A stretch of 64,000 nt of DNA from Escherichia coli (GTDB taxonomy: Bacteria > Pseudomonadota > Gammaproteobacteria > Enterobacterales > Enterobacteriaceae): assembly GCF_003334315.1 (NCBI RefSeq), contig NZ_QOWR01000006.1; one strand, 5' to 3'. Shown in pieces: positions 11,901 to 14,900 of the stretch. Position numbers: made by a program. The first letter of the stretch is position 1, and every line of letters begins with the position of its first letter.

Positions 11901-14900
11901 CCGGAAGAAGACGTTCGCCCACTGCTGGCGCTGGAGAATATCTTTGTTGATCAGGATTTTAGCAATAAAGAGCAGGCGATCCAGTTCCTGTGCGGCAACC
12001 TCGGCGTTAACGGGCGCACTGAACATCCGTTTGAGCTGGAAGAAGATGTCTGGCAGCGGGAAGAGATTGTTACCACCGGCGTTGGTTTTGGCGTAGCGAT
12101 CCCGCACACCAAATCTCAGTGGATCCGTCATTCCAGTATCAGCATTGCCCGGCTGGCGAAACCGATTGGCTGGCAGTCAGAAATGGGCGAAGTCGAACTG
12201 GTGATCATGCTGACGCTGGGTGCTAACGAAGGGATGAATCATGTGAAAGTCTTCTCGCAGCTGGCGCGTAAACTGGTGAATAAAAACTTCCGCCAGTCGT
12301 TGTTTGCCGCGCAAGATGCACAAAGTATCCTGACGCTGCTGGAAACAGAATTAACCTTCTGACGTTAGCCCTGAAAACGGGCGCTGTACTCTCCCGGCGT
12401 CAGACCAAACTGACGCCGGAAAACGCGACAAAAATAGTCGCTATCCGGAAAACCGCAACGCTGTGCCACTTCATGAATTGACAGATGATATTTCTGCAAA
12501 ATCATCCTCGCCTTCGCCATTCGCACCCAACGCACATACTCGATAAAACGCATCGTTCCATGCTGAGCAAACAGTTTTGACAGATGATTGGGCGTGATAT
12601 TAAAAAACTGCGCCACGCTCTCGCGGGTGAGCGGCTGGGCATAATTATCCTGAACCCAGTTACAAATGCTGTGATAGAGAAAATCGCCGCGCGGCTGCGA
12701 ATTGCCCGGCGGCATATTCACCACGCTACGGCAAAGATGCAGCAAACTTAACACCAGCGGCTGAATGATATTTTGCTCCAGCGGCGAACGGCTAAGATGG
12801 GTGAGGGCGGTAAGCATCGCTTCACCTTCACCGCGTTGCAGGCTGGGAAGCTGGATCTGGCGAGCAGGATGCAACAACGACGTGGTGCGGCTATCGTAAA
12901 ACGATAACCCAAGCCAGGTCGGAGCGAACACCAGGCTTAACAGCATCACCGGTTTGTTGTTGACCGGTAAATTAGCCGCGCGCGCCGGAATAAACAGCAT
13001 TTCTCCTTCCACCAAACGTTGCTGCTTTGCTTCCAGCAGATTGCCGTATTCGCCGCGCAGCACGATATCCAGACGGGGAAAATCAATACATAAACTGCCC
13101 ACCGGCAACGAGGCAGGCTGGCTGGCAAACCAGACGCGCCCCAGTAGTTGCGGGTTAAGCACCAGGCCGCTGAACAGATCGGCGAAAAATTGTTGATCGG
13201 CGGGCAAGCCTGGTGCTTTCATGAAAGTTCCCGATTAAAGATGCATTAACTGGCGAAATTCTTTCACTTTGCTGCGGCTGACCGGCACTTCAAAATCCAG
13301 ATCTTTCAGTCGCAGAATGTAGGTGTTATTAAACCACGGTTCGATTTCGCGTATTTTGTTCAGATTGACACAAAATGAGCGATGGCAGCGGAAAAAATGC
13401 GACGGCGGCAGTTTGCTGCAAAATTCGGTAATGTTCATCGGCATTACGTAGGATTCACGCCGCGTATAGACAAAGGTCATTTTCTCGTGCGCTTCGGCGT
13501 AATAGATATCGTTAATTGGCGTGACGATTATTCGCTCATCTTTCACCAGATTAATGGTGTCATTCTCACGCGTTACCGTCGCGGCAGGCGTACTGCTGGT
13601 CTGCTGTTGTTGCCAGGCCGCTTCCAGTTTTTGCAGCATCCCGGTAATACGTGACTCCTGATACGGTTTGAGAATGTAGTCAAACGCCTCCAGTTCAAAC
13701 GCTTCTACCGCATGTTCTTTCCACGCGGTGATGAACACAATAAACGGTTTATGGGCGAACTGGCTGATGTTTTGCGCCAGCAACACGCCATCCAGCGACG
13801 GAATATTGATATCCAGAAAAATGGCGTCGACGCGGTTATGCTGCAAAAACTTCAACACGTCCAGACCGTCGTCAAAGGTGCCGACAATCTCCATCTGGCT
13901 GTGCTCTTTAATTAGCCAGCTCAGTTCCTGTTGTGCCAGGAATTCGTCTTCAACAATGATGACTTTCACAATATCACTCCGGCTCAAAGCAATAACGTAG
14001 CCTGTGAGGCGACTGGGGTGCGTTGGTTAGGAATGTAAAACGCAATTTCCGTCCCCGGCTCCAGGCGGCGGATATGCAGCCCCTCGCCATACAATAACTT
14101 CACGCGATGATGGACATTCAGCAGGCCAATTTTATTGCCCGGCATTTCATTCGCTTCGACCCGCTCAATCACCTTTGGATCGATGCCGTGCCCGGTATCT
14201 CGCACCGCAATGCGTACCCGATTTCCGCACTCTGCAACGCTGATGGTGACAACGCCTTTACCTTTGCAAGGCTGAATACCGTGGACAATGGCGTTCTCCA
14301 CCAACGGCTGGATCAGCAGGCTGGGAATGCAGCAATTCACCTCTTCATCAATATCATAGATAACCGTCAGCTTGTCACCAAAGCGGGCCTGCTCAATGGC
14401 AATATAGTCTTTAATTTGATACAGCTCTTTTTTGATATCGATTTGCTCATCGTCTTTTAATTCAATGTTATAGCGCAGATAACGCGACAGATTAAAGATC
14501 AACTGGCGAGCGGTATCCGGATTCAGACGGATTGACGATGAAATAGCGTTCAGAGCGTTAAACAGAAAATGGGGATTAATTTTGCTTTGCAGGGCGCGAA
14601 GCTCTGCCTTATTTGCCATTTCACGTAGCTGCTCGGCGCGTGAAACCTCCAGTTGCGTGGAGATGATTTGCGACAGACCGACCGCCATTTCCTGTAATGA
14701 CGAGGTGATCTGATGCGCGTGGCAGTAGTAAATTTTCAGCGTTCCGGTCACGACCCCTTTCTCCCACAATGGGATCACCAGCATGGAATGAATCTCTGGT
14801 GTGCGGTGGGCTTCATCATTGTTTTTAATGATGATTTTTCCGTAATTCATCGCCTGACGGGTAGTCGGGCTAATGAAGTCATCGCCATTCTGATAGTTAT

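Follow-up and report, generated by a model that had tools for sequence, protein, structure and literature searches.

In Escherichia coli, hairpin-driven release of a transcript normally needs a U-tract. The trp operon (t/t′) terminates distally and by Rho, after which exonucleases trim the RNA back to an upstream hairpin that fixes its mature 3′ end. Rho-dependent E. coli transcripts have been found to carry, at their mature 3′ ends, stable stem-loops without U-tracts that block PNPase and RNase II, some of them within downstream coding regions, with C-over-G enrichment or Rho-utilization (rut) sites just downstream (Dar and Sorek, 2018; PMC6061677). For convergent genes, a Rho-independent collision model has been put forward, in which a stem-loop without intrinsic-terminator features lies between the two genes (Ju et al., 2019; Wang et al., 2022, preprint, 10.1101/2022.10.23.513370). 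Here we analyze a perfect hairpin at the convergent gene pair fryA and ypdC in a 64-kb stretch of an E. coli K-12-like chromosome (contig NZ_QOWR01000006.1; referred to as the window, in which coordinate x corresponds to MG1655 position 2514352 − x). The hairpin lies inside the 3′ coding end of ypdC, and the comparison of orthologues suggests that it functions as RNA within the fry operon mRNA, most likely as the protective 3′ stem-loop of a Rho-terminated transcript, a reading to which we assign a probability of about 0.55.

Results

The fryA gene (9867–12362, + strand) encodes an HPr-EI-IIA(Fru) multiphosphoryl transfer protein of 831 aa and ends the row fryBC-ypdFE-fryA with a TGA stop codon at 12360–12362. 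It is met by ypdC (12365–13222, − strand), which encodes an AraC-family regulator of 285 aa and has its TAA stop at 12367–12365, leaving 2 bp between the two stops, as a first-pass annotation of the window had reported. The same annotation had drawn attention to a perfect 10-bp stem with a 6-nt loop in the 3′ end of ypdC. This inverted repeat, CCGGCGTCAG-ACCAAA-CTGACGCCGG, is indeed present within the last 19 codons of the gene, though at 12394–12419 rather than at 12395–12420, and its stem begins 31 nt, not 33 nt, past the last base of the fryA stop. The intervening 31 nt (12363–12393, + strand; 28–31 nt in orthologues) would form the linker of a fry 3′ untranslated region (UTR); they hold no conserved structure, and their length should suffice to hold the stem clear of a terminating ribosome.

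Read on the + strand, i.e., in the fry-sense RNA that the fryA transcript would carry, the hairpin consists of the 5′ arm CCGGCGTCAG (12394–12403), the loop ACCAAA (12404–12409; NCCAAA in orthologues) and the 3′ arm CTGACGCCGG (12410–12419). On the − strand the 5′ arm encodes L274-T275-P276 and the first base of G277 of YpdC, the loop F272-G273, and the 3′ arm the third base of F268 followed by R269 (rare CGG), R270 (CGT) and Q271 (CAG). The codons over the hairpin are accordingly TT C CGG CGT CAG TTT GGT CTG ACG CCG G GA, with C CGG CGT CAG and CTG ACG CCG G as the paired bases, and they specify F268–G277, the conserved AraC C-terminal motif FRRQFGLTPG (F-RRQ-FG-LTP-G). The RRQ codons of ypdC are the exact reverse complement of its LTP codons.

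The predicted fold has an energy of −19.3 kcal/mol on the + strand RNA and −19.8 kcal/mol on the − strand RNA (z about −7 against shuffled sequences), and in the ypdC-sense RNA of E. coli it extends to 14 pairs including G·U pairs. Seven perfect hairpins (stem of at least 10 bp, loop of 3–10) were found in the window, compared with 0.5 expected under a first-order Markov model. A single hairpin of this kind in 64 kb could be chance, helped by the palindromic peptide motif, and the sequence alone does not prove its function; it is the comparative evidence that carries the case. The hairpin is single-copy, occurring at one place per E. coli genome, and an assignment to the repetitive extragenic palindromic (REP) elements or to another repeat was rejected on this ground. 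No family of Rfam 15 matched it at the gathering threshold, the top match being DicF with 17.8 bits compared with 48 required (E = 0.45).

Two sets of orthologous loci were compared. The first comprised 29 usable loci, one genome per species, from Escherichia, Citrobacter, Salmonella arizonae/diarizonae, Pseudocitrobacter, Enterobacter, Lelliottia, Pluralibacter and Superficieibacter. The second comprised 32 metagenome loci, retrieved with a degenerate DNA pattern that matches LFRRQFGLTPGE whatever codons are used, and all 32 proved to be ypdC orthologues adjoining fryA. As this pattern matched only ypdC orthologues in the metagenomes, it yielded no paralogue control, and the Citrobacter/Salmonella orthologues were used as an other-context control instead. 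After removal of redundancy at 98.5% identity, the combined set held 46 sequences: 30 with abutting stops, defined as 0–7 nt apart or overlapping, and 16 from Citrobacter and Salmonella, in which a spacer separates the genes or fryA is absent. One metagenome contig, RCUM01000032.1 (locus L064), has an extended ypdC frame (…RARFSVTVRS*) and an overlap of 11 nt between ypdC and fryA; its hairpin is intact save for the terminal pair and one G·U.

Because the peptide FRRQFGLTPG is essentially invariant among the orthologues, only synonymous sites can report on selection acting on the nucleic acid. Over the six stem codons, the 29 loci of the first set show 15 synonymous Fitch steps, where the other positions of ypdC with these amino acids predict 43.5 (0 of 1e5 permutations reached 15 steps), and no other 9-codon window of the gene is as constrained at synonymous sites as residues 268–276. 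In the 30 abutting-stop sequences, the five four-fold degenerate stem sites have undergone 11 steps where 35.8 are expected (P = 3e-5), and none of these is a transversion, compared with 20.0 expected (P < 1e-5); at the other four-fold sites of ypdC in this group, transversions make up 56% of the steps. The 16 Citrobacter/Salmonella sequences show 13 steps at the same sites (13.6 expected, P = 0.49), including 5 transversions (6.3 expected). In the abutting-stop group, all four Gly codons occur at Gly273 in the loop and at Gly277 adjoining the stem, and both positions change at normal rates, so that the constraint is confined to the paired bases. Codon preference cannot explain this pattern, since all 30 abutting-stop genomes encode R269 by one of the rare codons CGG and CGA, which make up 26% of Arg codons elsewhere, and T275 by ACG (42% elsewhere). 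The loop NCCAAA may also be under some constraint beyond coding, as judged from the codon of F272, which is TTT in every abutting-stop genome while other Phe columns vary; TTC was found only in L013 and L053, both of the Citrobacter group with a 1134-bp spacer. Taken together, these substitution patterns indicate that the hairpin is under purifying selection at the synonymous positions of its stem.

The same data bear on the simplest alternative, that the hairpin has no function as a nucleic acid and is a by-product of the palindromic peptide RRQ..LTP, of codon preference or of selection for translational accuracy. CTG, CCG, CAG and CGT are preferred codons, the peptide is invariant, and chance alone should give about 0.5 such hairpins in 64 kb. 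However, a by-product would not be expected to hold R269 and T275 to the codons named above, to exclude transversions altogether, or to leave the neighboring Gly codons saturated, and the same invariant peptide loses its codon constraint in Citrobacter/Salmonella once fryA has moved away. We therefore consider this explanation very improbable.

The relation to gene arrangement was followed through the 16 Citrobacter/Salmonella loci, where the stops are separated by about 100 bp (a REP pair), by 280–370 bp or by 1134 bp, or where fryA is absent. In these loci the constraint at the stem sites is gone and R269 drifts to the preferred CGC. The most degraded stems, at −11.2 and −6.2 kcal/mol, belong to two Citrobacter loci without fryA downstream (L014 and L032, respectively), and in Kluyvera ascorbata (L021), which has no fryA within 3 kb, ypdC is frameshifted near the motif and the hairpin is lost. 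A new strong hairpin or REP pair stands directly past the fryA stop in the spacer loci L012, L013, L015, L017, L018, L019 and L033. It is a REP pair in S. enterica arizonae/diarizonae, a REP-like stem in L012 and L013, and a 9-bp stem, CCAGCCTGC…GCAGGCTGG, in L015 and L017, from which the stem of L019 differs by one base in the 5′ arm. These spacer structures are of the position and kind that the embedded stem would supply. Abutting stops are seen on both sides of the tree and are probably the ancestral arrangement, and the loss of constraint where they are separated indicates that selection on the stem depends on fryA abutting ypdC.

We also examined which of the two RNAs is selected. All 11 changes in the abutting-stop genomes (CGG>CGA, CGT>CGC, CTG>CTA) produce a G·U pair in the fry-sense RNA and an A·C mismatch in the ypdC-sense RNA, while CTG>TTG, which would keep pairing in the ypdC sense, is never used. 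Among the first 29 sequences, 97.1% of alignment cells pair in the fry sense, 14 of them as G·U, compared with 92.5% and one G·U cell in the ypdC sense. The fry-sense energy lies between −16.2 and −20.7 kcal/mol in all 30 abutting-stop genomes; the ypdC-sense energy falls to −7 to −14 kcal/mol in many of them, and as low as −6.9 kcal/mol. The fry-sense stem is disrupted by a single kind of change, TTC>TTT, which affects the terminal pair and occurs in 3 of the 30 genomes. Wobble-only changes of this kind are expected if the fry-sense RNA structure is what is selected, and would not be expected for a DNA palindrome or a ypdC-sense structure.

A role of the structure on the ypdC mRNA itself, for example in slowing ribosomes near the end of the open reading frame (ORF) or in protecting the ypdABC message, is therefore hardly credible. 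It could draw on the stability of the ypdC-sense fold in E. coli (−19.8 kcal/mol, up to 14 pairs with G·U), but 11 independent substitutions break ypdC-sense pairs and a change that would spare them, CTG>TTG, is avoided. A 3′ block upstream of the stop codon should moreover give non-stop mRNAs, and the ypdC transcript has its 3′ region 31 nt past the stop.

This 3′ region, belonging to the transcript from the pyrSR-ypdC side, is a Rho termination region at window position 12334 (MG1655 2502018 on its + strand; − strand of the window), antisense to the 3′ codons of fryA, with a Rho score of 6.1. It is listed in Supplementary file 2 of Adams et al. (2021; PMC7815308) with low counts (tens of reads). 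The ypdC strand thus ends by Rho, away from the hairpin. The Rho region sits just downstream of a small hairpin, CAGAA-GGTTAA-TTCTG (12346–12361), which is not conserved in other genera.

Directly past the stem, the fry strand reads AAAACGCG in E. coli; orthologues have AAGAC, AACAG or AATAG, and no genome has a U among these first five positions. The longer tail is AAAACGCGAC on the + strand, where it is A-rich, and GAGAGTAC on the − strand, and no A-tract precedes the stem. Past the stem, no U-tract was found on either strand in about 60 orthologues, and a terminator scan (at least 5 T in 8) gave no call, so a canonical intrinsic terminator was rejected. That the fry operon nonetheless has a non-canonical, Rho-independent terminator able to work without a U-tract might be argued from the strong GC-rich stem 31 nt past the stop, which selection has kept in the fry-sense RNA and beside which no other structure is conserved. 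Against it stand the want of any U at the first five positions in all genomes, the silent terminator scan, and a stem lacking the U-tract normally needed in E. coli, and we regard it as decidedly unlikely.

From 12420 to 12560 the + strand is first A-rich and then strongly biased to C over G, making this stretch directly past the stem a candidate Rho-utilization region. Positions 12461–12560 contain 32 C and 14 G, which places them in the top 0.25% of 100-nt windows in the 64 kb for C skew, and the C/G ratio of the matching stretch is 1.05–2.0 in all orthologues.

In view of the missing intergenic space, the first-pass annotation had taken the stem to be the only candidate for terminating or stabilizing the fry transcript, had noted that it is not a canonical intrinsic terminator for lack of a U-tract, and had suggested convergent-transcription interference as a further role. 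The first point agrees with RNAalifold, which for 139 nt of fry-sense RNA from 16 diverged genomes returned the hairpin helix as the sole consensus structure, so that no other conserved structure is predicted in the first ~140 nt past fryA; two flanking hairpins predicted for E. coli, at 12368–12386 (GCCC..GGGC) and 12425–12441 (GCGAC..GTCGC), were set aside, since the orthologues do not keep them and they are missing from the consensus fold. A service to the fry transcript is likewise borne out by the synonymous selection, by the changes that keep G·U pairs and by the restriction to abutting-stop genomes, although terminating and stabilizing roles are not separated by these data. The second point stands on both the sequence and the terminator scan. 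The third is not upheld, since the ypdC-sense hairpin decays where the fry-sense one is kept and ypdC has its own Rho region.

Such interference could take the form of a collision-type bidirectional terminator, in which the hairpin pauses polymerases arriving from fryA and ypdC and head-on or trailing collisions end both transcripts in the overlap. In its favor are convergent genes without a spacer, the stem-loop without intrinsic-terminator features that the model requires, and a perfect palindrome that folds equally on both E. coli RNAs; a constraint tied to abutting stops would also fit. Nevertheless, we consider it rather unlikely, because only the fry-sense structure has been kept and the ypdC-sense stem carries A·C mismatches in many abutting-stop genomes. 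In addition, the stem lies in translated ypdC codons 26 nt before the stop, where ribosomes should unwind it, the ypdC transcript has a Rho-dependent region although the collision class is described as Rho-independent, and polymerases are unlikely to collide often given the weak expression of both operons in published data (tens of reads).

Gene neighborhoods were compared using the loci L022–L031, L034 and L035, with ypdC at about positions 3001–3855, and window positions 13235–15681. In these genomes of Enterobacter, Lelliottia, Pluralibacter and Superficieibacter, ypdC is convergent with fryA and lacks the upstream ypdA/ypdB (pyrS/pyrR), and the same holds for the Salmonella loci L018 and L033; in L035 an alpha/beta hydrolase gene and an ORF of unknown function lie upstream of ypdC. 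As ypdC stays linked to the fry operon even without ypdAB, its conserved partner is the fry operon, and this linkage suggests that YpdC may be a regulator of the uncharacterized fry phosphotransferase system (PTS) operon.

With such a regulator–target relation plausible, the hairpin could also be a regulatory RNA element and not simply a protector of the 3′ end, either by binding a protein on the fry 3′ UTR or by stabilizing this UTR, which would be antisense to ypdC mRNA over its last ~55 nt. In the antisense version, fry expression would be tied to loss of the message for its probable regulator, YpdC, by destruction or by non-stop decay. The strand-specific selection and the invariant loop Phe codon of abutting-stop genomes (NCCAAA) would fit. 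However, no Rfam family or known motif matches, the conservation of the loop is largely explained by coding (F272, G273), and spacer genomes have let the stem decay while ypdC and fryA persist, which fits a generic, replaceable 3′ hairpin better. Overall, a regulatory element is unlikely. The chances are equally slim for the specific proposal that the stem anchors and stabilizes a fry 3′ UTR perfectly antisense to the end of the ypdC mRNA, through which fry transcription would feed back on that mRNA; duplex formation with RNase III cleavage, non-stop decay and polymerase interference are possible routes. If true, it would amount to an excludon-like regulator–target loop hard-wired into a conserved DNA-binding motif.

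Within E. coli, the stem is identical across nine sequences (the window and eight other genomes) except for strain E272 (L040, NZ_CM173936.1), where a 12-bp in-frame deletion (CGGAAAACGCGA; window equivalent 12417–12428) removes four YpdC codons and cuts the 3′ arm of the hairpin to 7 paired bases. Among the E. coli loci retrieved from a BLAST over 5,423 genomes and aligned, no other variant damages the hairpin; this 54-nt search recovered mostly single-nucleotide polymorphisms of the flank and loop, and the E272 deletion. The diversity of E. coli is too low for the invariance of the stem to be informative. In E. coli isolate 2018-02-2CC (NZ_AP021896.1) ypdC is split by an IS1 insertion, and in AR_0006 (NZ_CP024851.1; L042) fryA is annotated as a truncated pseudogene, so the fryA–ypdC locus is dispensable in some isolates.

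Four of the six other perfect hairpins of the window, at 17315, 39895, 47819 and 63827, lie 10–76 nt past ORF ends, are flanked by A/T and resemble ordinary terminators. Those at 17315–17340 (AAACAGGAGCC-TGAT-GGCTCCTGTTT) and 63827–63852 (AAAAGGGAACC-TGAT-GGTTCCCTTTT) share a design of A-tract, 11-bp stem, TGAT loop and T-tract, are found 20 and 76 nt past ORF ends, respectively, and look like bidirectional intrinsic terminators. A second coding-embedded hairpin, the perfect 12-bp inverted repeat CGTTGCTCCATG-N9-CATGGAGCAACG, occurs at 37318–37350 within a 311-aa ORF (36723–37658, + strand).

Discussion

The arrangement on the fry strand, with a stable stem past the last ORF, no uridine-rich tract and a C-over-G stretch downstream, is the architecture described by Dar and Sorek (2018), and we therefore propose Rho-dependent release followed by trimming to the stem. 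With its stop 2 bp from that of ypdC, fryA would force its transcript to run antisense into the neighboring gene. The RNA would fold the 10-bp stem-loop of about −19 kcal/mol, without a U-tract, 31 nt past the stop, and RNA polymerase would go on into the untranslated C-rich, G-poor stretch, where Rho could load and terminate. Exonucleases working from 3′ to 5′ would then trim the RNA back to the stem, which would block them and give the mRNA a stable 3′ end at a defined place. In this way, selection acting on the fry RNA may have fixed ypdC codons that are otherwise free and partly rare, as the RRQ and LTP codons can be mutual reverse complements.

Several observations weigh against this proposal. 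The C-over-G stretch is also the antisense of the coding sequence for the YpdC helix-turn-helix and is C-biased in the Citrobacter/Salmonella genomes with relaxed constraint too, so it may be a coding by-product. The relaxed genomes are essentially one clade, so that relaxation is tied to the spacer by few independent rearrangements, though by four spacer types and many independent substitutions. No compensatory double substitution occurs in the orthologue alignments, where coding fixes one partner of most pairs, and for the same reason a shuffle control for covariation was uninformative; that the case rests on purifying selection and the wobble pattern and not on covariation is its main limitation. 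As 6 of the 8 possible synonymous stem transitions favor the fry strand by construction, the direction of the transitions was rejected as too weak a test of strand, and the strand assignment therefore rests on the absence of transversions and on the folding energies. The Term-seq and Rho tables of Adams et al. (2021; PMC7815308) contain no entry at MG1655 2501900–2501999 on either strand. Two other published supplement sets make no mention of fryA or ypdC, and a full-text literature search for the two genes returned nothing relevant; the sole experimental signal located at the junction was the Rho region on the ypdC strand. The fry operon is presumably almost silent in the media of the published 3′-end data, and if it is silent in LB or M63 glucose, no recorded 3′ end at the hairpin would be expected.

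One 26-base stretch carries both a conserved C-terminal AraC helix-turn-helix motif, coded on one strand, and an RNA hairpin under selection for the neighboring operon, formed from the other, which accounts for an otherwise odd, deeply conserved rare CGG codon. If the proposal is correct, a convergent gene can be held to particular synonymous codons by the 3′-end elements of Rho-terminated mRNAs, with a natural experiment in the genomes where the constraint vanishes once a spacer with a new hairpin or REP is inserted. By the same reasoning, 'silent' recoding of the ypdC 3′ end could destabilize the fry mRNA.

Compared with canonical intrinsic terminators, the fry stem is likewise GC-rich, with 10 bp and a 6-nt loop, but has neither a U-tract after it nor an A-tract before it. 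With the overlapping bidirectional terminators (Ju et al., 2019; Wang et al., 2022) it shares the convergent gene pair and an overlap hairpin lacking intrinsic-terminator features; at fryA–ypdC, however, only one strand's structure is conserved, the other strand is Rho-dependent and the element lies inside a coding sequence. Like REP elements and bacterial interspersed mosaic elements (BIMEs), which are GC-rich hairpins past stop codons that block 3′ exonucleases, it follows a stop codon, and REP-like hairpins hold its functional position in Salmonella arizonae/diarizonae and some Citrobacter, but the fry stem is single-copy, lacks the REP consensus and is coding on the other strand. The scheme proposed here resembles trp t/t′ in combining a distal Rho site with an upstream hairpin end, although the trp hairpin is intergenic and fryA–ypdC has no intergenic DNA. 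The closest resemblance is to the class of Dar and Sorek (2018), with which the locus shares a stable stem-loop of terminator-like size and energy, the lack of a U-tract and C-over-G enrichment downstream. It differs in that the fry stem is antisense within a convergent gene, in a conserved protein motif with measurable synonymous constraint, and in that we infer the 3′ end of the fry strand, its Rho dependence and its trimming. The class itself is already known; what is apparently undescribed is such a stem constraining a conserved protein motif of the convergent gene.

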